Shown: positions 2,262 to 52,379 of the stretch, piece by piece
Layout: each line of letters opens with the position of its first letter
Position numbering within the stretch: the stretch's first letter is position 1
Source of the DNA: Squalus acanthias
Taxonomy: Eukaryota
Assembly: GCA_030390025.1 (NCBI GenBank)
Contig: CM059431.1
Span: 127,908,001-127,972,000, forward strand
Direction: 5' to 3'
DNA: 64,000 bases
Translations under genes and position numbers: made by a program
The notes under the pieces: model-generated
Databases searched by the model: none
What the model was told of the DNA's origin: nothing
Seen by the model: the letters and a program-made list of their open reading frames with translations, nothing else

Positions 2262-3340
2262 GGAGGCTATGAACTGAGCCACTTGCTCATCAGTAAGCCA
2301 CGACGCTGTGCCATGTTGTGCAGTGCACTGCAGACCATGACCATACTGGAGACCCTGGCTGCTGAATACTATAGGGCTCCACCTGATCTGTCAAGGCATC
2401 TGAATCGCATCTTCAGCAAGTCAATGGTTTGCTCGATGATGGACCTGGTTGAAATGTGGCTGGCGTTGTAGCGCTCTTCAGCCTCGTTAGCTGACCTCCT
2501 GATCGGCATCATTAGCCACTTCTTCAGGGGGTAGCCCTTGTCACCAAGGAGCCATCCGTTAAGTTGGTTTGGCGGACTGAAGAGCGGAGGAACACTAGAG
2601 TTCCGCAGGATGAAAGAGTCATGGCAACTACCACAGAATTTGGTGCAAACATGCAAAATCTCCTTCTTGTGGTTACACACCAGCTGTACGTTGAGGTTGA
2701 CAAAGATAGCTGGGTTTTGATGGGGTGCTCTAAGGGCCACATGTGTGCAGTCTATGACGCCCTGCACCATTGGCAAGCCTGCCATATTTGCAAAGCCAAC
2801 TGAACGTGCGGTTACACTTGCTTGATCCCTTGAGAAGTAGATGTAATTGTGCATCTTTGCAAAAAGGGCATCGGTAACCTGCATGATGCAACTGTGGGCG
2901 GCCGACTGGGAGATGTCACTGATGTCTGCTGATGATCCCTGGAAGGAGCCTGAGGCAAAAAAGTTGAGTGCAGTGGTGACTTTGACAGCCACTGGTAAGG
3001 GGTGTCCACCTGTTCCTCTGGGCTCCAGGTGTTGGTGCAGCATTGCGCAGATGTCTTCGACAACCTGTCGTGAAAGTCTCAGCCTCCTTTGGCACTGCTG
3101 CTCACTCATGTTGAGGTAGCTCATCCTCTATCTGTAAACCCTGAGAGGTGGGTATCTCCTGCGGCGACGTGCTTCTATGCGCTGGCGCCTTCGGCCCTGT
3201 GCAGCATTAGGTGGTTGAGCAGGAGGTTGGCGCTCCTGCTGCTGTTGCTGCTGAGCTGCCTGGTTCTGCTGCTGCCGTGGCTGCTCCTCATCCGAATCTG
3301 AGCTCCATGGTGAAAAGAAATAAATGGTTCCCATGCTGCT
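2262..3340 (-). pseudogene. Harbinger (HARBI1-like) DDE transposase pseudogene
   Basis: [40 protein letters not shown] motifs; frameshift near 3125, premature stop at 2369, NRKG-x-HS motif deleted. Confidence 0.9.
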
Positions 3341-5339
3341 GGCAGATACCTCCGTTGGGGAAGCGCTCAGTCCAAGCGGGGAGAGGGTCTTCCAAGGAGG
3401 TCCCACAGTTGACAGATAGAAGCTGCAGCACCTCTGACTTTGGTAGGCCTGCTAAAAGTGCTGAAAGACCTGTGGAACAAAAATTCTGCCACCTGCAACT
3501 GCTCCCTGATGAAAGCTCCGTTTTAATGGTGGAGCTGCAGCTGTGAGAAGGCCACCCACTTGTCAACCCACCAGGATTAGCTGGCGTGGTTTAGGAGGGT
3601 CGTGCAACATGCACAAAATGTGGCAAAATAACAAAGGCCTGTGAAAATAGGATTCTAGAGGCCCTTAACTAGTATTTAAGGCTCTTAACTACCTCTCTAA
3701 ACCGATGGAGACGGGTTGGAGGCGGGTTCCGAACCCGCCCTCAGTTTTTGCCATTTTGCCAACTGTCCTGCCTCCAAACCCGCCTCCTCAGGGCTAGGAA
3801 AATCGCCCCCATACTCTTTTAAGGTAAGAAGCTCAAAAATGTACACAATTATTTATCTTCTATGGAAGTGATCCTTCTGTGGGAAATGAAGAGTGAGGCA
3901 ACAAATGCAATGAGGGTAATTTTGACTGTGCGATTGTGTAAAACGCATGATAGCAAATCAGCAGCCCGTTTCACATCTCTCCTGATTTTTATTTCCGTTG
4001 AAGTCAATGGAAATAAAAACCGAGAGAGATGTAAAATGGGCTGCCGATTCGCTATCACCCATTTTAATCTATCACGTAAAGTCAGAATTACCACCAATGA
4101 GTGTTAGTGGTTTGGTGAATACAGAGGATAAATTATTTTGTGATAATGTTATGCAATTTATGCTAATTCTAATCTGTAAGTTTAGTGGTTAATCAAGAGT
4201 TATGATTATGTGACAGGCAAATATGAAGTGAAAGGAAACCCAACATATAGACATGAGTCTGTAGGCAAATGATGGTGCAGCCTAATACCTAACCCCCCAG
4301 TTTTATGATTCCTGAAGTGCTAGTGGTGCTGCAGGAGATGGTTGTAAGGAGAGTCACCATTTTTGCCACTCTATAGGTCAGGATATACCTGGAAGGAGAT
4401 GCAGACAGATTGGAGACCACAGTTGATCATTATTGTCACTGGTTGCACCTGCCCTACTTTGCATAGTAGCTGCAAGCATCCTGACAGCTGACGGCACAGC
4501 TCTGGATCTTATTCTCTGCTGGCCTGTGAAGACAGTTCCTCATGGTCATCATCAAGGTAGGGTCAATAATGCCTGCAGTTATGGTTGGTGCTATTTTGGT
4601 GGGTGCTGCCAAGATGGTTATGTTGGTACACTTTCAACCATGCAGTATCAATGAGATCATCACAAACATGATTGAGATTTTTCCGAGGAACCATCCAATA
4701 TTATTATCAGTCAAGCATTCACATATTTTACTATACTATTGAGTCTGTTGTCCCTGCTTCCATTGAGGATATAAGCCTCTATATGCACTCCACATGATAT
4801 GGAATGCACTCACTGTCTGCCAAAGAAAAGTAAGCACCCCTTTGGCTACAGAAGCTGGTGTGCAGGTACCTGTGGATGGACACAGAGCACTTCTCATGAG
4901 GCATGATCTAGCTGGGATCCTTCGTTGGTCCTTTTCTTCTTCCAAATATCTCAGCTAGGGGATTCCCATTACAAACCCATCGGTGGCAGTAATGTTGCTG
5001 GGAGCAAAAATAAATGAGCAAAAACAATTGGCACAAAGGCTTATGAGAAACTAAAGTCACAATTTTAACACAGGGCACATTGGGGACAGGCAGGGTGCGG
5101 TGCTGGAGGGAAACCCCCACAGTGAGTTGAACATGGAACAACTGCCTCCTGCTCAAAACCAGCGGGAGTGAAGTCAGGGCTGCCAGGCAAGAGCAGGAAT
5201 TCAGCCGAGGGTCCAACGCTACCAGGGACCCAAGGGAAAGGTCCTCGGTATAAGAGTGACTGGCATGTGCAATGTCCCTGTCTCCAAATTAATATTTAAA
5301 CAAAGCTCCTAACTGTTTGAAAATAGGAAAATGGTTTAG

Positions 5340-11248: not shown

Positions 11249-11595
11249 GACATGGAGCAAAAACTATTAAAACATCTGACATTTGGAAGTACTACAGGCA
11301 GGATAGTGCGAACATATGCATCTTTACAAATGTAGATAGCCTGCTTCTGTCAGCCAGCAATTGTGAACAAAACAAGTCTTTTTAAAGAGAATGACATTGA
11401 ATTGAAATACATTAATTTTAAAGAACAGCTGATACAGTGAAACCTATAAATGATGAACACTTAACAGACTGGTATCAGCCGTCCTTATTTTGCAGATGGC
11501 CATTGTATGGATATAGTTTTGGCCAGGTTGCACGAAGATAGTCACCGCTTCTGTTCGACCGTCTCCTGAAATCGGCAAACCCGTCATCCTCCCCG

Positions 11596-12406
11596 GCAGG
11601 GACAGGGGACACAGGGATTCAAACCCTGGGACTCGCAGGGACAGGGGACACAGGGATTCAAACCCTGGGAACGGGTAGGGACAGGGGGACACAGGGATTC
11701 AAACCCAGGGAACGGGCAGGGACAGGGGACACAGGGATTCATACCCCGGGACTCGCAGGGACAGGGGACACAGGGATTCAAACCCTGGGAACGGGCAGGG
11801 ACAGGGGACACAGGGGGATTCAAACCCTGGGAACAGGCAGGGACAGGGGACACAGGGGGATTCAAACCCTGGGAATGGGCAGGGACAGGGGACACAGGGG
11901 GATTCAAACCCTGGGACTCGCAGGGACAGGGGACACAGGGATTCAAACCCTGGGAACGGGCAGGGACAGGGGACACAGGGGGATTCAAACCCCGGGACTC
12001 GCAGGGACAGGGGACACGGGGATTCAAACCCTGGGAACGGGCAGGGACAGGGGACACAGGGGGATTCAAACCCGGGGACTCGCAGGGACAGGGGACACAG
12101 GGGGATTCAAACCCTGGGAACGGGCAGGGACAGGGGACACAGGGGGATTCAAACCCTGGGAACGGGCAGGGACAGGGGACACAGGGGGATTCAAACCCCG
12201 GGAACGGGCAGGGACAGGGGACACAGGGGGATTCAAACCCCGGGACTCGCAGGGACAGGGGACACAGGGGGATTCAAACCCTGGGAACGGGCAGGGACAG
12301 GGGACACAAGGGGATTCAAACCCTGGGAACGGGCAGGGACAGGGGACACAGGGATTCAAACCCTGGGAACGGGCGGGGACAGGGGACACAGGGGGATTCA
12401 AACCCC
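11596..12406. repeat. Minisatellite, ~38-42-bp unit GCAGGGACAGGGGACACAGG(GG)GATTCAAACCCTGGGA(ACGG/CTC)
   Basis: About 20 directly visible tandem copies with two interspersed unit variants. Confidence 0.95.
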
Positions 12407-12681
12407 AGGCACTGGCAGGGTCAGCTCCTCTCTCTCAATATTACTGCTCTGTAGTGCACTATTAGGTGTTCACTGTGATACCATCAGTCATTTCGAATTA
12501 GCTAAGCACTTGTACCGAGAAGAGTGCTGGTACCTACGCCCATTAACATTACTTTGTTATAAAAACAGAAAATGTTGGAAATACTCAGCAGGTCAGGCAG
12601 CATCTGTGGAGCGAGAAACAGAATTAACGTTTCAAATCGATGACCTTTCGCCAGAACTAAAGGTCATCGACCTGAAACGTT

Positions 12682-23322: not shown

Positions 23323-24276
23323 ACCTGATGGGCAGTACCCCCTCTCCCTGGCCTCACCTGATGGGCAGAACCCCCTCTCCCCAGCCTCACCTGATGGGCA
23401 GTATCCCCATTCCCCGGCCTCACCTGACGGACTGCACAGCCTCTCCCTGGCCTCACCTGATGGGCAGTACCCCCTCTCCCCGGCCTCATCTGCTGGGCAG
23501 TACCCCCATCCCTGGCCTCACCTTATGGGCAGTACCCCCTCTCCCTGGCCTCACCTGATGAGCAGTACCCCCTCTCCCTGGCCTCACCTGATGAGCAGTA
23601 CCCCCTCTCCCTGGCCTCACCTGATGGGCAGTACCCCCTCTCCCTGGCCTCACCTGATGGGCAGTACCCCCTCTCCCTGGCCTCACCTGATGGGCAGTAC
23701 CCCCTATCCCTGGCCTCACCTGATGGGCAGTACCCCCCTGCCCGGCCTCACCTGACGGGCAGTACCTCCTCTCCCCGTCCTCACCTGATGAGCAGTACCC
23801 CCTCTCCCTGGCCTCACCTGATGGGCAGTACCCCCTCTCCCTGGCCTCACCTGATGGGCAGTACCCCCTCTGCCCAGCCTCACCTGATGGGCAGTACCCC
23901 CTCTCCCCGGCCTCACCTGATGAGCAGTAACCCCTCTCCCCAGCCTCACCTGATGGGTAGTACCCCCTCTCCCTGGCCTCACCTGATGGGCAGTACCCCC
24001 TCTCCCCGGCCTCACCTGATGGGCAGTACCCCCTCTGCCCAGCCTCACCTGACAGGCAGTACCTTCTCCCTGGCCTCACCTGACGGACAGTACCTCCTCT
24101 CCCCAGCCTCACCTGACAGGCAGTACCCCCTCTGCCCGGCCTCACCTGACAGGCAGTACCCCCTCTCCCTGGCCTCACCTGACGGGCAGTACCCCCTCTC
24201 CCCAGTCTCATCTGCTGGGCAGTACCCCCATCCCTGGCCTCACCTGACGGACAGTACCCCCTCTGCCTGGCCTCAC
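23323..24276. repeat. Minisatellite, 33-bp unit CCTCACCTGATGGGCAGTACCCCCTCTCCCTGG
   Basis: About 29 visible tandem copies; explains the MGSTPSPWPHL repeat ORFs. Confidence 0.95.
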
Positions 24277-28539: not shown

Positions 28540-28690
28540 TTTTTAAATTCGTTTATGGGATCAGGGCGTCGCTGGCAATGCCAGCATTTATTGCCCATCC
28601 CTAATTGCCCTTGAGAAGGTGGTGGTGAGCCGCCTTCTTGAACCTCTGCAGTCCGTGTGGTGATTGTACTCCCACAGTGCTGTTAGGTAG
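28540..28690 (-). mobile_element. LINE 3' end that hosts the LTR element (continues at 38162-~38200)
   Basis: Joined flanks give GTGCTGTTAGGTAGGGAGTTCCAGG, matching uninterrupted copies at ~14365 and ~63175. Confidence 0.85.
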
Positions 28691-30397
28691 TGTAAGGGAT
28701 TTCCCCTGACCCTGCGTGTCTCGTAGCCTGTGAGATTCACGCGGCTCTGTGCAGCCTGTATGTCAGTGCGGGTCTAGGCCTGGTTGCCTGTTCTGGTCTC
28801 CAGCCAGTCTGGGAACACTAGACACACCTGTGAGTGGTTCGAATCACTCTCCCTTACGGTTCTAGACACTGGACTTAGATGCGAGAGCAGTAATGGAGAT
28901 AAAACTCATGTAGACTTGGTTTGAATGGTACGAAATGGAAAATCTTTATTGCATGATACTTAAAATTATGAAATACATGTCATAAGCACAGATTAATGAC
29001 AGTACAATCTTACAAACGGTTATATAGTCGATCTTAGGGAAACGAGGAACGAACGGCACAACGTAAATAGGGGCACACATTACAAATATCCTTAATCTTT
29101 AAACCCTCCCCTATCAATATCTATCCTAAACTAGCTTCGTAGGATCTCGAGACTCATGCTCACCACTCGTGATAACTCGGAGAAATTCCGAATAGCTGAT
29201 CGGATGTTTTTCACCGCAGCACCCACGTGTCGGTCAGGAGATCTCCTGGTCCCACTTGTTTACTTGCTTCTGCTGCTCCGGCTAGTAGGCTGGACCGTCT
29301 GCTGTGATGAAGACCTCTGTTGGTGGGTTTCACAGTTTAGTCTTGGAGCACCGTTGTCAATATCATTGATACGATGTGTTTTCCACGTTCCAACCTCCTT
29401 AGAAGTTTAAAGAGGAAAACTTCCTGGCGAGAAAACTTGGCTGATCGACCTACAGGCGCGGTCGGGATTTACTGACCGTGGCGATGGATATGGTCTTCTT
29501 CTCTTCTCCTCTCATCTCATCTCATCTCATCTCATCTCGGGCCTTTGGTTCCGCTGCCAGTTACCAACATAGGTCTTCGTTACGCGACACGAGGTAGATC
29601 CGTACGGATCAGAAAGTTCAACAGTCTTTTCAGAAGAGGCAACAGGCACGCAGAAACCCAACTACGAGTACACAGGAGCAGCCACGAGGTTACGAATCGA
29701 CCGGATAAAACACAGGAGCAAGCGAGCGAACGCAGGAGCACGAACAAGAGCACGAGGCCAGAGGCAAGAGACAAGAGAGCGAGTGGACGGTTTGGGGCCT
29801 GCAATTATAGTGCAAAAATCTTCCGTTTCCCGCCCAACTATAATGTCCATTCTTTTGTTTAGGGTTTGGCGCCCAAATGTCTTGTATGGGTGATCTCCGT
29901 CCTTAATGGGTTTCGGGGCTACTCATGAATGTTTGAGTACCTGTTAATATTTCTCCCATTGTTAAATCGGTCGGTGTTCTCCCTGGAGGGGTTTGGGGCT
30001 TCCAAGTGTCCTGTATACGGCTCTCTCATCGTAGAGTCGTTGGGAGTTTACATATTAATGTCCTTTGGATGGGCCCTTGATTACTCGGTACAATGGCTTT
30101 CCTTTGTACCTGGGAGACCGATTCCAGTATCTATGTTTATACTGCAAACCCATAATGTCTCGTGTATTATCTTCACTGTGCTGAATCGTTATCGATCTTG
30201 CACAAATGTTTAATGGAACGCCATCTTGTCTGCCTGTTGAAAAGTCTAGAATGTTCTGTCACGAGGTGCGGCGGCCATTTTACAGGCTGCTTGTGTCCAA
30301 TTTAAACCTGCCAGCATTCTGCTGAAATAAAAGCTGTTTGAACGAACCTTTGTGTTTTCTCCTTATTAATCAAATCGCGATAATTGCGAATTCTACA
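28691..30397 (-). repeat. 3' LTR
   Basis: Direct repeat of 36443-38161 (offset 7752 up to the indel); AATAAA on minus strand at 28945-28950; lacks a 12-bp segment present in the 5' LTR. Confidence 0.97.
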
Positions 30398-30410
30398 GTC
30401 CCTCCTGTTG
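30398..30410 (-). promoter_or_regulatory. Polypurine tract
   Basis: Minus strand reads AACAGGAGGGAC immediately before TGTAG of the 3' LTR. Confidence 0.7.
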
Positions 30411-30823
30411 ATGCGAATAACTCCGCTTATCGTATCAAAAATCACAGTGGTGAGCAATCTTATCTCGATTTCACTCCGAATCCAGTAAATTAATCCCATA
30501 AATTTTAACTTAACTAGGGTCTCTGTGTCGTCCTTATTTCCCAAGAAAATCACATTTTATATCACCGTAGGCATCATTTGCCCTTAAACTTACACCACTT
30601 GTTTTCCTTCCCGGCGTAACCAGGCCGATACCTCACGCATCACCTGTATATTTGTCTTTTATTCAGGGAAAGGAAAAAAAAACAAAACCCAAAACCAAAC
30701 AATCAACACCATCACCAAAATAAACAAATCCCAACTCTTAAACATGTCGAGTTTCCAACGTATTTACAATGAGTACAAACTTCCGCGGCGCACGCGGCGA
30801 GCGGGAGTGACGCCATTTTCCGA

Positions 30824-33175
30824 TTACACGGTGCTCTCATCGTGCACGCGCACGTAACGTTCTCGCCACTCTCCCGTGTTTTCATGCTTGGTGAGGCGCT
30901 TGTCTCTTTTACAATGTATGACCAATAGGTACACTACAATAAACACTTGACAGACGACTAAAATGTGGGAGGCTATTCTGATCCATGAAGGCACTTCAAT
31001 ATTGGTGAACAGATTCCACCACGGTGGAACCACTATGTCCAAAATGTCTGTTCCTATCTCGACAGTTTTCTGCTCTAATGTATAAAAATGTTTCTGTGAT
31101 ACCGCGACGGCTTTCAGAAGTTTGGTTAAATGCTCAGGGAGAGGGGGAATGAGGTATCCAAAATGCGCGACAAATCGCTGCAAGTCGGTGAAATTCTCTT
31201 TTACTGTGAGGTGAACAGTGGATGGTTCAGGGATTGGGATGATTCGCTGTTGTGCTACTTGAACTTCAGCCCTGGGTTTAAAACAGAAACTGCTGTCACT
31301 CACCGGACACCGGCTACGGTTTCCATGCTGGTAGTGTTGCGCTGCAGTGGTAACACAATATGTTCCACCCCCGATGTATGCTACCTGCGGAGGCACATGA
31401 TCTTGTGCCATTGCCTCCATGGTGCAATTCATGGACTTGGCGCCAGCCGTTCTGAACCCGCACTGTGGTGTTAAAAAGGCATTCAAGTGCTGGGGGCACA
31501 GTATTATGTGTGCTCCCCTGCCACGACAACCAGAGAGATCTGTACCTGTCATCGTTTGCTCCCAGCGGATGACGTAAGGTGGAACCGCTGCATAACGAAT
31601 GTGGGCTCCCCCCTGAATGACACCAATGTTCTCTACCCGATACACCGGGGCGGGCTTTGCTGTGTTGCCCAAAACCGGCATGCGTAATACTATTCCCATA
31701 ATAGTATGGTTTGAACGTCCGCAGTCCACGGGGACTGGGTAAGCTTCTGAAGCTAGCCTGAGCTGGCACGGACTTAATGCGTTCTGAAAAGGGTGGAGCG
31801 CCCGTAGGTGTTTGTTACTTATCCAGGACGGAACCAAACCTTGTTTTAAATCCTCCAAATTACTGCGGCCCTCGCCCAGTAACCACGCCCCGTAAAGCAC
31901 GCACACCTCGTTCTGCGCAGCTTGATCGGATGCATTCCGATCTTCCCTGATCAGGGCATTTACCGTACGCGCATGTTTCTCCAGCTCTGCTATAATTTCC
32001 TTTAAATGGAGAGTCATGGCTTGGTCCTCGTGTAGACCTGACCCTACCACTTTATTCTCATCTGTTAGAATGTCTTTTAACTGTGTTTTTAAACCATTAA
32101 TCTGGGTCTGCAGCTCCACACTGTCTAGAGCGTTGACCACAGATGTCCCTGTGTTAAACGCAGTGAACGCATCGTTCACCAAACCCCTTCTTTGCCTCCC
32201 TACTTGATCCAAAACTTCCTGCGGTGCGGTGTACAAGCTTGTCTTATCAATTTCTGCAAAATCAAACTCGTAAAATTGTCTGAACATCTTGGTCAACAGG
32301 ACCTGATACAACTGTTCCGTCTTTTTGGGGCACCACTCTGGTAACCGTACCTCAGTGAGATTTAAAATCACCGAGGCCACCGCGTAATGTACCCCCTGAA
32401 ATAGTATCTGGTCTGTGGGGACCAGTACCAAACCGTTTCCGGGTCCCTTACTAGTTTTAGGGCACCCTTCTTCCTCAGCTAGAACCACCGGAATCGTGGG
32501 CGGGGCTTTGCGTGGGCGCGTAATGAGTTCAGTGGCATTTACTGGGATCGGGGAGAATGGGGCTCCGCACCCCCTGGTGCTCGCATCCCACCTCATCCCC
32601 TGTCCGTTATCCTGCCACTGATTAATAAAAAATATGGAGATGCCTTTGGGGCAAACGTACTTTGACCCCCACATACATACATAAATCCCCTCATCCGGTT
32701 CCCACCATTTGTCCCAACAGACTTTCACTTGTCCGTCTGTCCCCGTAATTGTCCGATGGGTATTATTACCCAGTCGTTCCCACTCGACCGAAGAGTTTCT
32801 CATAGTTTTGCTCAGCTTTCGCAGCTACCACCATCGGCTCAATGGGACATCCCCACTACAGGTCAAACAAATCCGTTTGCCGACGGTGACGCTGATCCTG
32901 GGTGCGATGATCCTTACTTTGGGGCACATTAAAGAAGTCTCTTTGTAGGCGAACCCCGATGTGCTGGAATACTCCGTTGAGTTCGTTCCCAGCCATCCTG
33001 GCCACCTTCCCTTGTGGAAATAGGTGCTGGTCCCCTCTGCCTTCCGTCTTCCGGTCCCATCCACCGCGATGGGGGCCGTGTCCCCGGAACATCCAAACAC
33101 CACGACATCCTTGGTGTGGCCTCGATAGGCCAATCCACATCCGATTGCCACGAGCAATACTAGAATTCGTTCCAT
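30824..33175 (-). CDS. env: Envelope glycoprotein, 783 codons with one in-frame TAG (32827-32825): signal peptide, Ig-like domain, class I F-like fusogen, TM
   Basis: MERILVLLVAIGCGLA signal peptide in AGGATGG context; ORFs 32825-33358 and 30824-32803 are the same frame; furin site RQRR (32197-32186) then GLVNDAFTAFNTGTSVVNAL, heptad repeat, Cys-rich region and TM IASHILVVCQVFIVVYLLVI. Confidence 0.88.
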
Positions 33176-33187
33176 CCTTCCTTGGTT

Positions 33188-33212
33188 CCTGTGATCAGAT
33201 AGAATGAGGTAG
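33188..33212 (-). promoter_or_regulatory. Candidate env splice acceptor
   Basis: CTACCTCATTCTATCTGATCACAG|G; exon would start 13 nt before the env ATG. Confidence 0.55.
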
Positions 33213-33438
33213 CCAGCCTCGCAAAAGTCTCTGGCTTTTGTGAAGGGTGAGCGGGTCCCCTGACCTCGCCTCACGTAAACTTCAACGTTTGCTGAATAGA
33301 CTTCCTCTAAACCTAGCCTTAAAACTCCCATCATTTTATCGTTTTCTGTTAAAAACACTACAAACTTAACCTTGAACTATAAACTTAAAACTTAAAACTA
33401 ATAACTTTACAGTGCCGCCCGTTCTCAGGGCGGCCCCT

Positions 33439-34626
33439 TTAAATTCTGAGAAGGCTGCTGCGAGCTCTTCCCGACGGTGGGAGGGCACTGACCCTTCCCT
33501 CTGATCTGCCGCAGCCTGTTGCTGCGCTGACCCTTTCCTCTGATCTGCCGCAGCCTGTTGCTGCGCTGACCCTTTCCTCTGATCTGCCGCAGCCTGTTAC
33601 TGCTGCGATGTGGCCGGTCTGTACCCGGGTTATCTTAACCTGAAGTCTACGCCTTGGGGCAGTCTGGGGACATGACCACATCCTCCTGGGCTGGGGTTCT
33701 CTACTTGACCTACGGGGAGTTGCTATGGGCGGGGGTTCCGTGACGGACGGACCGGGTTCCGAGACCTCCAACGGGATGACCTGGGGTTCCATCACAGTCG
33801 CCGGCTCCGCCTCCGCTGACTCCGCCTCCCTAACCTCGGGGCTGGCAGTTCGTGGCTCCGCCCTGCTCGGCCCAGCAGGCGGCCCTTCACTCGTGATCTC
33901 TGCCTCCCCTGAGGACTGGACGTTCAAAGCGGGCGGCCACATCTCTGGGAGCCACACCGGTACTCTCTGTGCTCCTATAGCGGCTGGCCCTGCCTCCTCT
34001 AGCTCCTCCCTCCTGTCCTCGGGACCTGCAGCTTGCGTGTCCACCCTGTGTGGATCTCTACCTACAGCCCCCATTCCCTCCAGACCGTTCCTCAGGAACC
34101 ACCCGTCATCATCACTATGCTCATCTGCACTATCCTCATCTGACCAGGGTACCCTGAGTTCTTCCTCATCTAACCCCCAATTCCAGAAAAACGCTGCATG
34201 ATCGTCCGGGATGTCCCTTCCCCTGATACAAGCTGCTATGCCTGCCTGTGTGCCTTGTGGTCCTACCTGGGGCTGTGCTTTCCCATTGGCGGGATTTACC
34301 CCTGTAGTTTTCCCCTGCGCACCCGGCTGGTACAGTCTGCATTGGTTTACATCCTCATACTCCCGGCTTTTGGCTGCCCTGTAGGCTGCTTTTATCTCTC
34401 TAAGCTGCGCTTCTAGCCTGAGCACGTCTAACTTTCCCATTGCTCGGGCGTTCTCCTCCCGCAGGGCCTGCTCTCTAAGCTGCCCTTCCAGCCCATCTAT
34501 TTTCCCTATTAAGCGGGCGTTCTCCTCCCGCAAGGCCTGCTCTCTTAACCTGGCCTCCTCTCCGCAGACCCCCTCCTGTGCGTGTCTTTTAAAAGGACAC
34601 AGGTAGGCAGGCTGCGTGGGCTCTAG
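33439..34626 (-). CDS. Gag-readthrough extension (395 aa), unknown coiled-coil plus acidic/Pro-rich protein in the position normally held by pol
   Basis: Open in the gag frame from the codon after the gag TGA (CTA GAG CCC ACG..; LEPTQPAYLCPFKRHAQEGVCGEEARLREQALREENAR..) to TAA at 33441-33439; no ATG before the Met in RAMGK. Confidence 0.75.
   Translation of the reverse strand, partial: LEPTQPAYLCPFKRHAQEGVCGEEARLREQALREENARLIGKIDGLEGQLREQALREENARAMGKLDVLRLEAQLREIKAAYRAAKSREYEDVNQCRLYQPGAQGKTTGVNPANGKAQPQVGPQGTQAGIAACIRGRDIPDDHAAFFWNWGLDEEELRVPWSDEDSADEHSDDDGWFLRNGLEGMGAVGRDPHRVDTQAAGPEDRREELEEAGPAAIGAQRVPVWLPEMWPPALNVQSSGEAEITSEGPPAGPSRAEPRTASPEVREAESAEAEPATVMEPQVIPLEVSEPGPSVTEPPPIATPRRSSREPQPRRMWSCPQTAPRRRLQVKITRVQTGHIAAVTGCGRSEERVSAATGCGRSEERVSAATGCGRSEGRVSALPPSGRARSSLLRI
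33488..33604. repeat. 39-bp coding tandem repeat (3 copies; AATGCGRSEERVS)
   Basis: CTGACCCTTTCCTCTGATCTGCCGCAGCCTGTTGCTGCG x3, frame-preserving. Confidence 0.9.
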
Positions 34627-36438
34627 TCATTGGGTACTATTAGACGGTCCTGCGGCACCTACGGGGCCGGTTGCGACCGCCACCTGTCCACGCGCATTCA
34701 AGACCAGCTTGCGCATGGCTCCTAACACTGCTTCGAGGTCGTCGGGAGGGGTGGGTGCCTTGGCTTCCTTAGCCGGGACCGGCGCCTGGGCTCGCACCGC
34801 GGGATTTTTATCCTTGGAATCCTTCCAAGGGTTCCTGCAATGCTTGCGCCAGTGCCCTGTCTTCCCACACCCGTAACAAGCATTACTTGCCTGTGGGGCG
34901 CGATTTCCCTCCTGATGCCACTCCTTTTGAGCCGGGGCTGCGGGTCGTACCTCATGTACTCTTCCCTTAAAGGGACGTGTCGTCATACCCCTTATATTAC
35001 GATAACCTAACGTGAGTCGATTCAAGACCGACTCTTCCGTAAGGTTGAGGTCATTGGGATCGAACCAGGCTTTTGCCTGCTCTCTAACGGCTGGTAAACT
35101 GTTGGCTATTATGCACCTAAGCCAATGAATTAAAGCGGCGCCTTCCACATCTTCGCGCTCGGGCGCACCTAGACAGCTGCGCTCATATACTGGCCACAGC
35201 CTGTCGGCAAAAACCTTCGGGGGTTCTCCCTCCATCTGCACTGTCTGTCCCACTCTAGCAAACGGACCTCCGTCGTTCGCCCCCACTACTTCTAGGACCT
35301 CATTCTTTAATTCCTCATAACTCTTGTTTCCCCTCTTGCTCTCGCCTGAGAGACACTGAAGGACCGAGCTGTCTAATGAGAACAGCAGCATTTTTGCTGT
35401 CTCCCCATCATCGCAGCCGTTAATGGCTGCGGCTTGCTCAACTTCTCTGAAATGTACGGAAGGGTCGTCTATCTCGGTCAGCTTCCGTACGTGATTTATC
35501 ATAGCTCTCAGCTGATGTGAACTGTGAGGCAACACCAGCTGTCCGAGGAGATCCCCCGGTTCTTCCCCACCGTTTCTGCTTGGGCCCCTTTTAATACCCG
35601 TTACTGGATACAACGATCCCTTTTCTTCTTCCTTTTCAATGGGCTTTTTCGTTTCTTCCATTGCTTCCTCCCTAACCCAGGTTTCTGAATAGCTGGGTGG
35701 CGCGGAGGGCGCAGTGGCTACTACTTCTTCTGCTTTACTTGGTGGGGATTTTCTAAATCTCTCATTTACTAGCGGCTGGTGCGCCGACGGATTGATAAGG
35801 CACACCATGCCGTTCGCATTATTCACGGCCTTTTTGAGGCTCTCTATCTCCCTTTGGCAGGCGCTATGGTCGGCTCCCTGAAACTTATCCTCAAGGGCCA
35901 ACTTATACGCCGACCTAACCCCCATTAAGCTCTCTTCTTGAGTTCTTATCTGGGCAGCTTGGCGGTTGCATCTTTCCTTTAACCTACTCTCATTCAATTT
36001 TGCTTCAGTGACCTGGCACTCGAGATACTCTATCCTTGTTTTAAGGTGACTGGAGACTTCCTGGCTTTCCTGGTGTAACTCATTTAAATTCTTAATGAGC
36101 ACCTCCCCTCCAGAAACCTTCTCCTCCATTTCTCCCTCTAAATGGCTGATTCGAGCTGTTAGCGCTGTAATGGTCTGGTTTGAAATCTGAACCTGCCTTT
36201 TGTAGCACATAAGCCAGACTGCTTTCTCAACTGCCTTTTTATGTTCCTTACTATCTGTCCACCTTTCAGCTGCCTCTAGTGGGCTCTTATCCGCTAACAA
36301 TTCACTTATCCACTTCTTAGTTAGATTAACCTTTCCAAACACATAATCCGCTATCTTTTCCTGCATAACATTTCGTACAGTCATTCCAAAATCTAACACA
36401 CTACCCTCTCGCTGCCAGTGTCCTGCCGCGGTCGCCAT
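34627..36438 (-). CDS. gag: Gag polyprotein, 603 aa
   Basis: Starts AAAATGG (MATAAGHW); long N-terminal coiled coil, PSAPPSY late motifs (35709-35689), MHR-like QMEGEPPKVFADRL, zinc knuckle CYGCGKTGHWRKHC (34878-34837). Confidence 0.92.
   Translation of the reverse strand: MATAAGHWQREGSVLDFGMTVRNVMQEKIADYVFGKVNLTKKWISELLADKSPLEAAERWTDSKEHKKAVEKAVWLMCYKRQVQISNQTITALTARISHLEGEMEEKVSGGEVLIKNLNELHQESQEVSSHLKTRIEYLECQVTEAKLNESRLKERCNRQAAQIRTQEESLMGVRSAYKLALEDKFQGADHSACQREIESLKKAVNNANGMVCLINPSAHQPLVNERFRKSPPSKAEEVVATAPSAPPSYSETWVREEAMEETKKPIEKEEEKGSLYPVTGIKRGPSRNGGEEPGDLLGQLVLPHSSHQLRAMINHVRKLTEIDDPSVHFREVEQAAAINGCDDGETAKMLLFSLDSSVLQCLSGESKRGNKSYEELKNEVLEVVGANDGGPFARVGQTVQMEGEPPKVFADRLWPVYERSCLGAPEREDVEGAALIHWLRCIIANSLPAVREQAKAWFDPNDLNLTEESVLNRLTLGYRNIRGMTTRPFKGRVHEVRPAAPAQKEWHQEGNRAPQASNACYGCGKTGHWRKHCRNPWKDSKDKNPAVRAQAPVPAKEAKAPTPPDDLEAVLGAMRKLVLNARGQVAVATGPVGAAGPSNSTQ
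36420..36437 (-). promoter_or_regulatory. Primer-binding site, tRNA-Arg(UCG)-type
   Basis: TGGCGACCGCGGCAGGAC lies 5 nt after the 5' LTR and is complementary to GTCCTGCCGCGGTCG-CCA, which I recall as the 3' end of a vertebrate tRNA-Arg(TCG). Confidence 0.85.
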
Positions 36439-36442
36439 TTTC

Positions 36443-38161
36443 TGTAAGGGATTTCCCCTGACCCTGCGTGTCTCGTAGCCTGTGAGATTCACGCGGCTCT
36501 GTGCAGCCTGTATGTCAGTGCGGGTCTAGGCCTGGTTGCCTGTTCTGGTCTCCAGCCAGTCTGGGAACACTAGACACACCTGTGAGTGGTTCGAATCACT
36601 CTCCCTTACGGTTCTAGACACTGGACTTAGATGCGAGAGCAGTAATGGAGATAAAACTCATGTAGACTTGGTTTGAATGGTACGAAATGGAAAATCTTTA
36701 TTGCATGATACTTAAAATTATGAAATACATGTCATAAGCACAGATTAATGACAGTACAATCTTACAAACGGTTATATAGTCGATCTTAGGGAAACGAGGA
36801 ACGAACGGCACAACGTAAATAGGGGCACACATTACAAATATCCTTAATCTTTAAACCCTCCCCTATCAATATCTATCCTAAACTAGCTTCGTAGGATCTC
36901 GAGACTCATGCTCACCACTCGTGATAACTCGGAGAAATTCCGAATAGCTGATCGGATGTTTTTCACCGCAGCACCCACGTGTCGGTCAGGAGATCTCCTG
37001 GTCCCACTTGTTTACTTGCTTCTGCTGCTCCGGCTAGTAGGCTGGACCGTCTGCTGTGATGAAGACCTCTGTTGGTGGGTTTCACAGTTTAGTCTTGGAG
37101 CACCGTTGTCAATATCATTGATACGATGTGTTTTCCACGTTCCAACCTCCTTAGAAGTTTAAAGAGGAAAACTTCCTGGCGAGAAAACTTGGCTGATCGA
37201 CCTACAGGCGCGGTCGGGATTTACTGACCGTGGCGATGGATATGGTCTTCTTCTCTTCTCCTCTCATCTCATCTCATCTCATCTCATCTCGGGCCTTTGG
37301 TTCCGCTGCCAGTTACCAACATAGGTCTTCGTTACGCGACACGAGGTAGATCCGTACGGATCAGAAAGTTCAACAGTCTTTTCAGAAGAGGCAACAGGCA
37401 CGCAGAAACCCAACTACGAGTACACAGGAGCAGCCACGAGGTTACGAATCGACCGGATAAAACACAGGAGCAAGCGAGCGAACGCAGGAGCACGAACAAG
37501 AGCACGAGGCCAGAGGCAAGAGACAAGAGAGCGAGTGGACGGTTTGGGGCCTGCAATTATAGTGCAAAAATCTTCCGTTTCCCGCCCAACTATAATGTCC
37601 ATTCTTTTGTTTAGGGTTTGGCGCCCAAATGTCTTGTATGGGTGATCTCCGTCCTTAATGGGTTTCGGGGCTACTCATGAATGTTTGAGTACCTGTTAAT
37701 ATTTCTCCCATTGTTAAATCGGTCGGTGTTCTCCCTGGAGGGGTTTGGGGCTTCCAAGTGTCCTGTATAACTACCTGCTAACGGCTCTCTCATCGTAGAG
37801 TCGTTGGGAGTTTACATATTAATGTCCTTTGGATGGGCCCTTGATTACTCGGTACAATGGCTTTCCTTTGTACCTGGGAGACCGATTCCAGTATCTATGT
37901 TTATACTGCAAACCCATAATGTCTCGTGTATTATCTTCACTGTGCTGAATCGTTATCGATCTTGCACAAATGTTTAATGGAACGCCATCTTGTCTGCCTG
38001 TTGAAAAGTCTAGAATGTTCTGTCACGAGGTGCGGCGGCCATTTTACAGGCTGCTTGTGTCCAATTTAAACCTGCCAGCATTCTGCTGAAATAAAAGCTG
38101 TTTGAACGAACCTTTGTGTTTTCTCCTTATTAATCAAATCGCGATAATTGCGAATTCTACA
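36443..38161 (-). repeat. 5' LTR
   Basis: Minus strand TGTAGAATTC...CCCTTACA; copy of 28691-30397 plus 12 bp near 37769-37780; (TCTCA)n microsatellite inside. Confidence 0.97.
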
Positions 38162-38399
38162 GTAGGGAGTTCCAGGATTTTGACCCAGCGAGTGGCGATG
38201 AACTGGAATTTGCTGCCGATGGAAGTGGTGGAAGCGGAGACAGTTTTCAAAGGGAGACTGGATAGGCACTTGAAGGAAATCAACTTGCTGGGCTACGGGG
38301 ATAGAGCGGGGGAATGGGACTGACTGGATTGCTCTACCGAGAGCCGGCATGGACCCGATGGGCCGAACGGCCCCTTCTGTGCCGTTTTGACTCTATGAC

Positions 38400-49062: not shown

Positions 49063-49069
49063 GGGGGAG

Positions 49070-51900
49070 ATGGTAGCGTGGGTCATGGGGGAGATCAGAG
49101 TGTGGGTCATGGGGAGATCAGAGTGTGGGTCATGGGGGAGATCAGAGTGTGCGTCATGGGGGCGATCAGAGTGTGCGTCATGGGGGCGATCAGAGTGTGG
49201 GTCATGGGGGAGATCAGAGTGTGGGTCATGGGGAGATCAGAGTGTGGGTCATGGGGGAGATCAGAGTGTGCGTCATGGGGGCGATCAGAGTGTGCGTCAT
49301 GGGGGCGATCAGAGTGTGGGTCATGGGGGAGATCAGAGTGTGGGTCATGGGGAGATCAGAGTGTGGGTCATGGGGGAGATCAGAGTGTGCGTCATGGGGG
49401 CGATCAGAGTGTGGGTCATGGGGGCGATCAGAGTGTGGGTCGTGGGGGAAATTAGAGTGTGGGTCATGGGGGAGATCAGAGTGTGGGTCATGGGGGAGAT
49501 CAGAGTGTGGGTCATGGGGAGATCAGAGTGTGGGTCATGGGGGAGATCAGAGTGTGCGTCTTGGGGGCGATCAGAGTGTGGGTCATGGGGGCGATCAGAG
49601 TGTGGGTCGTGGGGGAAATTAGAGTGTGGGTCATGGGGGAGATCAGAGTGTGGGTCATGGGGGAGATCAGAGTGTGGGTCGTGGGGGAAATCAGAGTGTG
49701 GGTCGTGGGGGAAATCAGAGTGTGGGTTGTGGGGGAGATCAGAGTGTGGGTCGTGGGGGAAATCAGAGTGTGGGTCATGGGGGAGATCAGAGTGTGGGTC
49801 GTGGGGGCGATCAGAGTGTGGGTCGTGGGGGCGATCAGAGTGTGGGTCGTGGGGGCGATCAGAGTGTGGGTCATGGGGGAGATCAGAGTGTGGGTCGTGG
49901 GGGAAATCAGAGTGTGGGTCGTGGGGGCGATCAGAGTGTGGGTCGTGGGGGCGATCAGAGTGTGGGTCGTGGGGGCGATCAGAGTGTGGGTCGTGGGGCG
50001 ATCAGAGTGTGGGTCGTGGGGGCGATCAGAGTGTGGGTCATGGGGGAGATCACAGTGTGGGTCGTGGGGTGATCAGAGTGTGGGTCGTGGGGCGATCAGA
50101 GTGTGGGTCGTGGGGGCGATCAGAGTGTGGGTCATGGGGGAGATCAGAGTGTGGGTCGTGGGGTGATCAGAGTGTGGGTCGTGGGGCGATCAGAGTGTGG
50201 GTCGTGGGGGCGATCAGAGTGTGGGTCATGGGGGAGATCAGAGTGTGGGTCGTGGGGTGATCAGAGTGTGGGTCGTGGGGCGATCAGAGTGTGGGTCGTG
50301 GGGGCGATCAGAGTGTGGGTCATGGGGGAGATCAGAGTGTGGGTCGTGGGGTGATCAGAGTGTGGGTCGTGGGGCGATCAGAGTGTGGGTCGTGGGGGCG
50401 ATCAGAGTGTGGGTCATGGGGGAGATCAGAGTGTGGGTCATGGGGGAGATCAGAGTGTGGGTCGTGGGGCGATCAGAGTGTGGGTCGTGGGGGCGATCAG
50501 AGTGTGGGTCATGGGGAAGATCAGAGTGTGGGTCATGGGGGAGATCAGAGTGTGGGTCGTGGGGCGATCAGAGTGTGGGTCGTGGGGGCGATCAGAGTGT
50601 GGGTCATGGGGGCGATCAGAATGTGGGTCGTGGGGGAGATCAGAGTGTGGGTTGTGGGGGAGATTGGTTCGTGGGTCATGGGGGAAATCAGAGTGTGGGT
50701 CGTGGGGGCGATCAGAGTGTGGGTCGTGCGGGAGATCAGAGTGTGGGTCGTGGGGGCGATCAGAGTGTGGGTCGTGGGGGCGATCAGAGTGTGGGTCGTG
50801 GGGGCGATCAGAGTGTGGGTCATGGGGGAGATCAGAGTGTGGGTCGTGGGGGAAATCAGAGTGTGGGTCATGGGGGAAATCAGAGTGTGGGTCGTGGGGG
50901 CGATCAGAGTGTGGGTCATGGGGGAAATCAGAGTGTGGGTCGTGGGGGCGATCAGAGTGTGGGTCATGGGGGCGATCAGAGTGTGGGTCGTGGGGGAGAT
51001 CAGAGTGTGCGTCATGGGGGAGATCAGAGTGTGGGTCATGGGGGAGATCAGAGTGTGGGTCGTGGGGGAGATCAGAGTGTGGGTCGTGGGGTGATCAGAG
51101 TGTGGGTCGTGGGGGCGATCAGAGTGTGGGTCATGGGGAAGATCAGAGTGTGGGTCATGGGGGAGATCAGAGTGTGGGTCATGGGGGAGATCAGAGTGTG
51201 GGTCATGGGGGAGATCAGAGTATGGGTCATGGGGGCGATCAGAATGTGGGTCGTGGGGGAGATCAGAGTGTGGGTTGTGGGGGAGATCAGAGTGTGGGTC
51301 GTGGGGCGATCAGAGTGTGGGTCGTGGGGGCGATCAGAGTGTGGGTCGTGGGGGAGATCAGAGTGTGGGTCGTGGGGCGATCAGAGTGTGGGTCGTGGGG
51401 GAGATTGGTTCGTGGGTCATGGGGGAAATCAGAGTGTGGGTCGTGGGGGCGATCAGAGTGTGGGTCGTGGGGCGATCAGAGTGTGGGTCATGGGGGAAAT
51501 CAGAGTGTGGGTCATGGGTGAAATCAGAGTGTGGGTCGTGCGGGAGATCAGAGTGTGGGTCGTGGGGGCGATCAGAGTGTGGGTCGTGGGGGCGATCAGA
51601 GTGTGGGTCGTGGGGGCGATCAGAGTGTGGGTCATGGGGGAGATCAGAGTGTGGGTCGTGGGGGAAATCAGAGTGTGGGTCATGGGGCGAATCAGAGTGT
51701 GGGTCGTGGGGGCGATCAGAGTGTGGGTCATGGGGGCGATCAGAGTGTGGGTCGTGGGGGAGATCAGAGTGTGCGTCATGGGGGAGATCAGAGTGTGGGT
51801 CATGGGGGAGATCAGAGTGTGGGTCGTGGGGGAGATCAGAGTGTGGGTCGTGGGGAAGATCAGAGTGTGGGTCGCAGGGGAGATCGGTTTGTGGGTCGGG
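49070..51900. repeat. G-rich minisatellite, 23/24-bp unit GATCAGAGTGTGGGTCRTGGGGG(A/C)
   Basis: About 2.8 kb of directly visible tandem copies. Confidence 0.97.
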
Positions 51901-52379
51901 GGGAGATTGGAGTGTGGTTGGCGAGAGATCGGAGCGTGAATCAATGGGAGGAGATCTGAGCGTGGGTTGTGAGGGTGATCTGAGCATGCGGATAAATGCA
52001 GGTTAGCTTAATCTGCCATGGGAAAGCACTCCTGTTCCTCCTGGCCCACAAGCAGTGCTGGAAAGGCACTTGCCTGCTGGATCTGGCCTTTCTCGCCTCC
52101 CTCCAGCTGCTGGGTTTTCTGAGCCCTGGGAAACCTGGCTCACAGCATTAAATGTAAAACTCTGGTAAAATTTGAACCACGCAGCCTCATCAAAATATTT
52201 AAATAACTGACCCACCTCTCGCCCCCCCAACCCGTTAAAACCAGATGTGGGCAAGTTGGAGGTGGGTTTGGGTCAGGTTTCAGATTTCAGAAATTTTACA
52301 CCTCTCCCGTCCGTCGTGTAAGGTTAAAATGCTGTGTGTTTCCAGCCTTTTCTGTTTTTATGAAGGAGTTATGAATGGT

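Follow-up and report, generated by a model that had tools for sequence, protein, structure and literature searches.

Architecture of the provirus

The 64,000-nucleotide stretch of DNA analyzed here, referred to as the window, carries an endogenous provirus at 28691-38161 on the minus strand, which is a genuine insertion with long terminal repeats (LTRs) and a target-site duplication that were read directly. The 3′ LTR (28691-30397, minus strand; 1,707 bp, TG..CA ends) and its direct repeat, the 5′ LTR (36443-38161, minus strand; 1,719 bp), are enclosed by identical 4-bp copies of GTAG, located at 28687-28690 on the 3′ side of the element and at 38162-38165 on the 5′ side. Aligning the two LTRs gave 0 mismatches and a single 12-bp gap (37769-37780 in the 5′ LTR, missing between 30016 and 30017 of the 3′ LTR), and the pair is therefore, as the first-pass annotation had judged by eye, identical except for one 12-bp indel. 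Genome sequences matching the 5′ LTR number at least 50, with identities of 96-100%. A short polypurine tract, AGGAGGGAC in element sense, adjoins the 3′ LTR (30398-30408, minus strand) and is identical in 6/6 sampled pol-less copies, while a TGG-initiated, primer-binding-site-like 18-mer, TGGCGACCGCGGCAGGAC in element sense, lies 5 nt inward of the 5′ LTR (36420-36437, minus strand). The primer may be an Arg tRNA; one gapped pattern, written to find a tRNA gene with an exact match to the site, returned 0 matches, and the 64-kb window contains no tRNA gene. Each component of the complete cis machinery that had been claimed for this locus (TG..CA LTRs, GTAG duplication, primer site, and polypurine tract) was seen directly.

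The interior comprises four frames on the minus strand, not three long ones as first described, with the env frame cut by an in-frame TAG. The reported absence of enzyme motifs was confirmed, with no Pfam match (E ≤ 1) to protease (PR), reverse transcriptase (RT), RNase H, or integrase (IN) in the interior frames of the window element. An autonomous element with a cryptic polymerase was ruled out on the grounds that no enzyme domain was found. Open reading frames of the window family have already been annotated in related species as host proteins or chimeras.

The gag gene (34627-36438, minus strand; 603 codons and a TGA stop), with an ATG that overlaps the primer site, encodes a coiled coil at its N terminus, a CA-like helical region, and a single CCHC knuckle. 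The zf-CCHC match in the window gag has a Pfam E of 0.31, PF00098 is carried by a gag homologue, and two Gag homologues were found in all. Nothing significant was obtained by comparing the Gag sequence with the PDB, and the predicted Gag model is poor (pLDDT 48.4); its top structural matches, the Arc, MLV, and HIV capsids (E 0.014-0.1), lend weak support to a capsid-like fold. The gag stop is set in the context TGA-CTA-G, which may promote stop-codon readthrough and is retained, and RNA structure downstream of the stop was non-significant in both forms of the element (z −1.7 and +0.9).

A paramyxovirus F-like envelope

The env gene (30824-33334, minus strand) is annotated as an F-type class I fusion glycoprotein of 836 codons, broken at codon 170 by an in-frame TAG (32825-32827) that reads TGG in other copies. 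The 666-aa "env" described earlier misses the first 169 residues, including a signal-like peptide (33128-33175); further along the same strand lie an RQRR cleavage site (32186-32197), a fusion-peptide-like stretch (32126-32185), and a transmembrane segment (TM; 30917-30985). With the TAG in its env, the window copy is of no use as a source of envelope, yet it is still equipped in cis for mobilization. No run listed is recorded as RNA, and contig joints from other sequencing runs included no env splice joint, two results with no bearing on expression.

The fold was predicted on an intact homologue taken from the full-length copy L031. Foldseek matched this model to paramyxovirus and pneumovirus F proteins (E 3.6e-10, probability 1.00), with 233 matches at E ≤ 0.001, the top-listed of which are all paramyxovirus or pneumovirus F. 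This was further strengthened by VIA-align comparison with F (Z 13.1 over 321 residues; Z 12.0, rmsd 4.7 over 285 residues), in which Env residues ~298-705 can be overlaid on the complete F ectodomain, and by an F-type layout of basic cleavage site, fusion peptide, long heptad helix, beta-rich head, second helix, and TM. At the sequence level, PF00523 (Fusion_gly) had no match at E ≤ 1 in Env or in any of the 45 aligned sequences (44 relatives plus Env), comparison of Env with the PDB gave chance-level matches only, and the nearest ESM clusters carry Gypsy, Baculo_F, or Fusion_gly, which serves as a lead only. The predicted Env is thus paramyxovirus F-like at the level of fold (Foldseek E 3.6e-10; Z 13), which bears out its earlier assignment as F-type even though PF00523 is unmatched. 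Like the viral F proteins (PDB 1ztm, 8tve, 8dmj, 3rki, and others), Env has an RQRR site followed by a hydrophobic peptide and then a long helix, but its identity to them is only 8-14%, it is encoded by a retrovirus, and it has an extra N-terminal region of ~297 residues that is poorly modeled, with weak Ig-like hints.

Pol remnants around a foreign filler

Between gag and env, ORF2 (33439-34626) proved to be a composite in one frame, made of 12 Pol codons, ~81 foreign coiled-coil codons, and a Pol tail of ~300 residues. The pol start, ~11-12 codons (LEPTQPAYLCPF; 34595-34626, minus strand), lies directly downstream of the gag stop and is followed by a foreign filler of 245 bp (34350-34594, minus strand; ~81 aa, helical and heptad-like, with an internal degenerate repeat of ~70 bp) that stands in place of 3,620 bp of pol. 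The 3′ part (33439-34349, minus strand) is the post-integrase C-terminal Pol tail, ~300 aa of low complexity ending in the pol stop, matching full-length copies at 97-98% identity from nt 5719 of L031 onward and containing a 39-bp tandem repeat in three units at 33488-33603. In other words, Pol residues ~13-1217, covering PR-RT-tether-RNase H-IN, were swapped for 245 nt of foreign sequence. The first-pass annotation had placed an unrelated open frame in the pol slot and argued against a simple pol deletion; ORF2 is instead the Pol frame with its enzymes replaced. That annotation had named degenerate pol within 33439-34626 as a finding that would count against it, and this is in part what is seen: 36 nt of the 5′ end of pol and about 910 nt of its 3′ end are present at ~98% identity to full-length copies, and the enzymes are absent. 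By blastn and tblastx, the filler resembles neither the full-length element nor any other part of the window; the only similarity recovered was its own internal repeat.

Full-length helpers and copy number

The spacing of LTR pairs in the genome, measured start to start, falls into two size classes of ~11.1 kb and ~7.7 kb. All nine long interiors examined (9/9) align with the window element except for 3,620 bp that replace element positions 3568-3812. We refer to the pol-deleted sub-family of the window element as S and to its full-length gag-pol-env relatives in the same genome as helpers. The helper pol frame contains PR (RVP), RVT_1, RT_RNaseH_2, RNase_H, Integrase_H2C2, rve, and SH3_Tf2-1, and window gag and env are ~99% identical to the nine full-length interiors. 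The pol-bearing partner that had been predicted, with the same LTR ends and primer site, therefore exists, and its polypurine tract matches as well (LTRs 96-100% identical). Sampled full-length interiors had gag open in 9/9, pol open to its usual stop in 8/9, env open in 7/9, and all three open in 7/9, and 4-bp duplications with 0-3 LTR mismatches were found in 7/7 evaluable copies (the eighth pair was not located). Taken together, Retroviridae-like features are all present: TG..CA LTRs, a short duplication, primer site, polypurine tract, CCHC gag, and the PR-RT-tether-RNase H-IN order in the helper form. Against the PDB, helper Pol scores at much the same level with Ty3 (8e-72), MLV/XMRV RT (6e-70), and foamy virus PR-RT (2e-63), and helper IN is nearest to PFV IN (1e-33) among the matches; this pattern fits a deep lineage and is not diagnostic.

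Copy numbers were obtained from exact 35-41-mer matches, with reversed-pattern controls at 0. The S gag/filler junction gave 1,102 genome matches (35-mer; reversed control 0), the gag/PR junction of pol-bearing forms gave 1,870, and the IN-end/tail junction, which distinguishes two helper sublineages, gave 987 for the window-like helper and 979 for the second sublineage. The family thus totals ~3,000 near-identical copies, of which ~1,900-2,000 are pol-bearing and about one third are pol-less. S junction matches occur on all large contigs, and in a search with the 291-bp junction, 40/40 scored places were full-length matches at ≥98% identity. The gag/filler junction is no assembly artifact, since it is also spanned by contigs of two other sequencing runs. 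Six S copies were sampled whole, a small and biased set chosen via LTR similarity to the window; their flanks are all different, their LTR pairs differ by 0-3 mismatches, and their duplications comprise five perfect 4-bp repeats and one 8-bp repeat. The check proposed earlier, for many copies with distinct duplications, is borne out by the 1,102 junction matches and by the duplications that 6/6 sampled copies each have of their own.

Selection, mosaicism, and age

The dN/dS comparisons reported here are simple site counts with no substitution model. In gag, variants shared between copies split 11 non-synonymous vs 15 synonymous (p 9e-5); in env the split was 1 vs 12 (p 2e-7), and for gag variants shared only among S copies it was 6 vs 9 (p 0.002). 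On these counts, gag and env polymorphisms show apparent purifying selection. Low dN/dS in S gag could reflect recombination with helper gag rather than use of S-encoded Gag. Env was open in 4/6 sampled S copies. The proposal that the element builds its own particle and envelope therefore stands for the family, with gag under apparent purifying selection and env mostly open, and falls for the window copy, with its TAG in env.

Informative sites found only in S cluster at element positions 3166-4234, and downstream of 4234 (env, polypurine tract, and LTR start), 0/26 informative sites are S-only. The 26 S copies compared fall into at least four right-junction/tail classes, and some carry the second helper sublineage's tail; S is a mosaic with both helper sublineages. 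The junction material included 20 pieces (491 bp) that were the first-listed exact 35-mer matches on three contigs. Filler divergence among S copies reaches 12.5%, against about 0.4% among sampled helpers, which indicates that the S lineage predates the current burst.

Origin and probable mobilization of the pol-less sub-family

These observations are best explained if the window holds a recent insertion of S, a non-autonomous, pol-deleted sub-family of an F-type-Env endogenous retrovirus that is mobilized by its helpers, in what is probably an elasmobranch genome (probability of the explanation about 0.85). S retains the cis elements (LTRs, primer site, and polypurine tract), gag with its stop codon, and env; of pol it keeps the in-frame start and the non-enzymatic tail. 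Its own LTR would drive transcription of S RNA, particles made in cells that also express full-length copies would take that RNA up, and helper PR, RT, and IN would then reverse-transcribe and integrate it, giving new copies with 4-bp duplications. Co-packaging of S and helper RNAs would also permit recombination, which may be why S cannot be told apart from the helper in its env and LTRs while the junction core keeps an older history. Trans-mobilization is well supported because the sampled S copies differ in flanks and duplications and their LTR pairs are near-identical. We infer dependence on helper proteins from the absent enzymes and from the env and LTR variants that S has in common with helpers; the earlier proposal of a non-autonomous family that needs a borrowed Pol is upheld by the same lack of enzymes in S and by a helper with matching cis ends in the genome.

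A different possibility, which we regard as unlikely, is that S is an independent satellite lineage in which ORF2 is a functional novelty rather than a mere scar, for example, a Gag-readthrough mimic of Gag-Pol that enters or hijacks helper particles. In its favor, the filler shares no similarity with the helper; a filler divergence of up to 12.5% marks the lineage as old and diverse; the TGA-CTA-G context at the gag stop is retained; the first ~140 ORF2 codons are open in 24/26 S copies; and the three right-junction variants seen in the six whole copies are offset by +33 and +9 nt, which preserves the frame in all of them. However, three quarters of ORF2 (~300/395 residues) is merely the Pol C-terminal tail, and the copies are too young for open frames to mean much. 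By the same site counts, shared filler variants (23 non-synonymous, 12 synonymous) give a dN/dS of about 0.56 (p 0.08), filler singletons one of about 0.85, and the tail one of about 0.7, which is non-significant; moreover, ORF2 matched no Pfam family (E ≤ 1), and no homologue of the filler was found among proteins of 152-2,000 aa. In its most far-reaching form, which we offer as speculation, S would be a long-lived satellite with its own capsid and envelope genes that has outlived at least one helper turnover by recombining its flanks with the active pol-bearing sublineage, and the readthrough product (coiled-coil module plus integrase tail) would act as a functional Gag-Pol mimic conferring a packaging or competition advantage. 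If true, this would give virophage-like or satellite-like hyperparasitism a counterpart among vertebrate retroviruses, and would do so in a lineage with an F-type Env that had not been described in cartilaginous fishes before.

It is improbable that S is a transducing defective retrovirus, one that took up part of a host gene as its filler and joined it in frame to the gag-readthrough frame. Replacement of pol in frame by foreign, coding-like sequence in a helper-dependent element recalls the acutely transforming retroviruses, but the filler is just ~81 aa of repetitive helix and its flanks resemble diverged helper homologues, a hint that the donor was viral and not the host. An 86-aa filler query had no homologue at E ≤ 0.01 among proteins of 152-2,000 aa, which is weak evidence, and the top 40 matches of the 291-bp junction search of the genome were all element copies, masking any host source behind them.

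Multiplication of S mainly at the DNA level, through tandem or segmental duplication or LTR-LTR recombination instead of reverse transcription, is very unlikely as a general account. Several S interiors lie 7.6-8.2 kb apart on one contig, and some copies form tandem arrays at 7.7-kb or 6.4-kb spacing (three S at 7.72 kb on one contig and six at 6,417 bp on another), so part of the S copy number does come from DNA-level events. Against a dominant role stand the distribution of matches over all large contigs and the unique flanks, own duplications, and near-identical LTR pairs of 6/6 sampled copies. A one-off artifact, whether loss of pol from one provirus once it had inserted or misassembly of a normal gag-pol-env provirus, is effectively ruled out by the 1,102 junction 35-mers (reversed control 0), the 40/40 scored places full-length at ≥98%, the distinct duplications, and the junction-bridging contigs of other runs.

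Comparison with known systems

Non-autonomous spread by deleted proviruses has precedents. Mouse ETn/MusD, IAP I-delta-1, and SFFV-type defective retroviruses are deleted derivatives that have LTRs and packaging in common with a competent relative and can outnumber it; ETn is without coding capacity, and the IAP deletions fuse gag and pol. To our knowledge, none of ETn/MusD, IAP I-delta-1, and SFFV has an F-type Env. Chicken EAV-HP is present in a handful of copies, and the S family is three orders of magnitude more numerous. As described, its LTR-flanked insert likewise misses the whole pol gene yet has inserted at new loci, but it also misses parts of gag and env and measures about 4.2 kb (PMC3554524). 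A further parallel is bovine ERVK[2-1-LTR], described as a young clade of autonomous C-type and non-autonomous D-type copies, the defective ones being trans-mobilized and making up a large share, for which a "parasite-of-parasite" dynamic is proposed (PMC10924933). The D-type copies are described there as without functional genes, whereas S has gag open, env open in most sampled copies, and both under apparent purifying selection; S further differs from the bovine system in its F-type Env, cartilaginous-fish host, and foreign in-frame filler (PMC10924933).

The lokiretroviruses, which are defined by an RT phylogeny that places them as sister to other retroviruses and whose Env has detectable sequence similarity to PF00523, resemble the present family in gag-pol-env layout and in having a tether plus RNase H (Wang & Han 2020, PMC7947760). 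In that study, their Env is likewise described with a signal peptide, basic cleavage site, fusion peptide, coiled coils, TM, and resemblance to paramyxovirus and pneumovirus F, although PF00523 went undetected in the window-family Env and its 44 aligned relatives (PMC7947760). Relatives of the window-family Env occur in frogs, including Xenopus tropicalis, which is among the species scored lokiretrovirus-positive (PMC7947760). Non-autonomous forms go unmentioned in the main text of that study, and none of the 6 chondrichthyan genomes in its dedicated screen was positive (0/6; PMC7947760); the present family extends F-fold retroviral envelopes to elasmobranchs.

A single vertebrate genome thus holds ~3,000 near-identical copies of an F-type-Env retrovirus, of which ~1/3 are a pol-less parasite of the rest, and the youth of the system is evident in the many open frames among the few copies sampled and in LTR pairs that differ by 0-3 bases. 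Such a system opens the questions of how defective endogenous retroviruses compete with, and perhaps throttle, their helpers, as in the "parasite-of-parasite" proposal for cattle ERVK, of whether a defective lineage gains from keeping its own gag and env, and of how frequently co-packaged genomes recombine. Set beside its chicken, bovine, and mouse counterparts, the element is of a known kind, the non-autonomous endogenous retrovirus, in a striking new setting.

Anatomy of the pol-less provirus

The window carries a retrovirus-like provirus of 9,471 bp on the minus strand (28691-38161), and the anatomy assigned to it in the first-pass annotation proved real. Direct-repeat alignment places the 3' LTR at 28691-30397 (minus, 1,707 bp) and the 5' LTR at 36443-38161 (minus, 1,719 bp), the two aligning with no mismatch and one gap of 12 bp, with TG..CA ends and GTAG on either side. 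Read in element sense, GAAAA separates the 5' LTR from a primer-site-like 18-mer beginning TGG, and the 3' LTR is adjoined by the short purine run AGGAGGGAC. The gag ATG (36436-36438) overlaps the 18-mer, and gag begins with hardly any untranslated leader after the 5' LTR (36420-36442).

The minus-strand interior holds four stop-to-stop frames of 632, 395, 183, and 666 aa, the last two being a single env frame split by a TAG at 32825-32827; the proposed layout of gag, middle frame (ORF2), and env is thus real, with env broken in the window copy. No protease, RT, RNase H, or integrase was found in the element by Pfam at E ≤ 1, in agreement with the earlier reading by eye. Three large minisatellites lie near the element, at 49063-51984 (24-bp unit, ×123), 23323-24276 (33-bp unit, ×29), and 11595-12424 (42/81-bp unit, ×20), and most other long open frames of the window fall within them.

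Pol-bearing copies and the origin of the middle frame

An LTR search of the host genome (3.7 Gb, 3,882 contigs) returned at least 50 matches at 96-100% identity, with LTR pairs forming two spacing classes of ~11.1 kb versus ~7.7 kb. Nine long interiors and five short whole copies were fetched for comparison (six short copies with the window, 15 in total). The pol-bearing helper with the same LTRs that had been postulated was found: 9/9 long copies align over the entire window element except for one block, which measures 3,620 bp in the long copies versus 245 bp in the window (element 3568-3812; window 34350-34594). A long copy encodes gag (603 codons from the ATG), a TGA, an in-frame pol of 1,520 codons in which Pfam recognizes RVP, RVT_1, RT_RNaseH_2, RNase_H, Integrase_H2C2, rve, and SH3_Tf2-1, and finally an env frame of 854 codons.

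Comparison with this long form overturned the suggestion that the pol slot holds an unrelated open frame and no pol sequence, as a quarter of ORF2 is foreign and the remaining three quarters come from the pol tail. It joins, all in frame, the first 12 codons of long-form pol, ~81 codons without relation to the long element or the rest of the window, and the last ~300 pol codons, a low-complexity tail that follows the integrase SH3-like domain; Pol residues ~13-1217 are the portion deleted. Within this tail, a 39-bp repeat (window 33488-33603) differs in copy number between proviruses, the tail ranges from 896 to 989 nt across copies, and one repeat unit is skipped in contigs of two sequencing runs.

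Copy number and independent integration

A 35-mer over the junction of gag with the filler (the 245-bp foreign piece in place of pol) had 1,102 matches in the genome at ≤2 mismatches. The gag/protease junction of the long form had 1,870, and the right junction had 300 in its window type and 445 in an alternative type, with reversed-pattern controls giving 0 matches for each of the four probes. With a 291-bp junction probe, 40/40 scored places were full-length matches at ≥98% identity. Flanking sequence differs among all six short copies studied in full, their LTR pairs have 0-3 mismatches, and five carry their own perfect 4-bp target-site duplication (gggg, caag, ccac, aatg, ctac), so that the multicopy family supposed in the first-pass annotation is borne out. 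The long copies likewise show 4-bp duplications and 0-3 LTR mismatches in 7/7 evaluable cases, the eighth pair not having been located. A single copy made by deletion or misassembly is excluded by the many junction matches, the independent integrations, and contigs from two other runs that bridge the gag/filler junction.

The remaining short copy, L043 (G000:C10:70846400-70856100), has the 8-bp direct repeat ggctaggc at its flanks where 4 bp is usual. Pol-less interiors also occur in tandem, three at 7.72-kb spacing (G000:C1:143657915-143673390) and six at 6,417-bp spacing (G000:C3:64286081-64318198), the latter implying a shorter pol-less variant. These arrays look like LTR-sharing concatemers. 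What DNA-level duplication explains is limited to some tandem arrays. An LTR variant without about 159 bp (query 934-1092) is present on pol-less and full-length copies alike (G000:C10:70847291, C12:2452286, C3:189462763, C273:711277). Near-identical sequence was seen in sequencing runs X1-X14 (0.41-0.61 of sampled words), which are labeled as five different organisms; the family may be common to related species, or the samples may be labeled differently.

Reading frames, selection, and mosaic history

Among the six short copies, gag is open in all, ORF2 in five (one frameshift), and env in four, the breaks being the TAG of the window and one other; among the nine long copies, gag is open in all, pol to its usual stop in eight, env in seven, and all three together in seven. 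Simple counts of synonymous and non-synonymous sites across the 15 copies gave 11 non-synonymous and 15 synonymous shared variants in gag (expected non-synonymous fraction 0.78; P = 9e-5), 1 and 12 in env (P = 2e-7), and 21 and 9 in the Pol tail (not significant). Among variants common to short copies only, gag had 6 and 9 (P = 0.002) and the tail 16 and 7; env had none. Judged from these sequence counts, the purifying pattern argues that gag and env are in use by the replicating population. For the filler, 23 non-synonymous and 12 synonymous shared variants among 26 short copies (dN/dS ~0.56, P = 0.08) hint only weakly at a role for the foreign peptide.

A tree of gag, tail, and env groups the six short copies as a clade (support 0.90) nested among long copies. 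The sites setting them apart cluster around the junction (element 3166-4234), and downstream, in env, the polypurine tract, and the LTR start, 0/26 informative sites are private to short copies. Immediately ahead of the filler, ~45 nt diverge from the long form by ~15%, versus ~1% elsewhere. The right junction is variable across 26 short copies. A window-like tail is joined in 5 and 33 additional foreign nucleotides are present in 8, with one copy intermediate and one departing at a later point. The other 11, classed by motif, have a tail unlike the window-like helper, this class being heterogeneous (mostly clearly diverged, a few intermediate). The diverged tail is that of a second pol-bearing sublineage, with 979 matches (≤2 mismatches) at the integrase-end/tail junction and 987 (≤1 mismatch) for the window-like sublineage. 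The two sublineages are about equal in size genome-wide, and pol-less copies occur with either tail. The filler diverges among the 26 short copies by 5.3% on average and by up to 12.5%, and sampled long copies differ from each other by about 0.4%. On this small, non-random sampling, the pol-less lineage would predate the present burst and may keep swapping its flanks with a co-packaged helper.

Envelope fold and virus group

The env had been called F-type, a designation that stands at the level of fold (Foldseek, VIA-align) and not of sequence: a PDB search by sequence gave no match to Env, and PF00523 is absent by Pfam from this Env and 44 relatives. An exhaustive HMMER search recovered 49 Env relatives, those looked up coming from sharks, a skate, a sawshark, and frogs, and the best matches of Env and Gag share 51-75% identity with a skate, which points to an elasmobranch host. 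Env runs from an RQRR site through a hydrophobic peptide, a long helix, and a second helix to a TM segment. Its AlphaFold model (45 sequences) has a mean pLDDT of 59.8, rising to 80-95 over residues ~290-360 and ~460-700, with the first ~297 residues lacking a confident model. Foldseek returned 233 matches at E ≤ 0.001; every top-listed PDB match is a paramyxovirus or pneumovirus F, with hPIV3 F ranking best (E = 3.6e-10, probability 1.00). VIA-align gave Z 13.1 over 321 residues against hPIV3 F and Z 12.0 (rmsd 4.7, 285 residues) against postfusion Nipah F, residues 298-705 spanning the whole F ectodomain. The predicted structure thus supports an F-type Env at fold level; ESM-Atlas neighbors (Gypsy, Baculo_F, or Fusion_gly) serve as a lead only. 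Env-like stretches also lie inside annotated "host" proteins of other elasmobranchs (P0002, P0003, P0010, P0039) under names such as Niban-1-like, ZFP2-like, and an F-box protein; these are probable chimeras in which a gene model has taken in ERV env.

Against the PDB, Ty3, MLV/XMRV, and foamy-virus enzymes are about equally similar to Pol, and PFV integrase is nearest to the integrase, similarities that would fit a deep-branching lineage. Lokiretroviruses are defined through RT phylogeny and an F-like Env (PMC7947760), and the same study screened 6 chondrichthyan genomes with 0 positive and scored Xenopus tropicalis as positive. The window family is a possible member: its Env has the fold of Mononegavirales F proteins and, at sequence level, no PF00523 match.

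Proposed mobilization and comparison with known elements

Pol-less copies have their cis elements, gag, and env in common with pol-bearing ones and lack the enzymes. The pol-less family exceeds 1,000 copies and shows independent integration; gag and env are under purifying selection, and variants are shared in mosaic fashion with two helper sublineages. We infer that pol-less RNA would be transcribed from its own LTR, that Gag would come partly from the pol-less element itself, and that this RNA would be packaged together with helper RNA, whose PR, RT, and IN would carry out its reverse transcription and integration, with template switching between the co-packaged genomes. The gag stop lies in a TGA-CTA-G context, which reportedly promotes readthrough, and no significant RNA structure was found downstream of it; a Gag-ORF2 readthrough product is plausible.

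Trans-mobilized non-autonomous ERVs are already known, ETn/MusD and IAP deletion forms among them, and the window family is another such case. A word search of the open-access literature, which cannot show absence, found no description of it. It is unusual in its scale, with about 1,100 defective copies beside about 2,000 that bear pol, in being extremely young, in keeping gag and env, and in its foreign insert, which is in frame. Also unusual are the signs that the defective lineage is long-lived and recombining, and the occurrence of an F-fold Env in a retrovirus from a cartilaginous fish. Further examples of this kind are the bovine ERVK C- and D-types, for which a parasite-of-parasite dynamic is proposed (PMC10924933), and EAV-HP, which is pol-less (PMC3554524).
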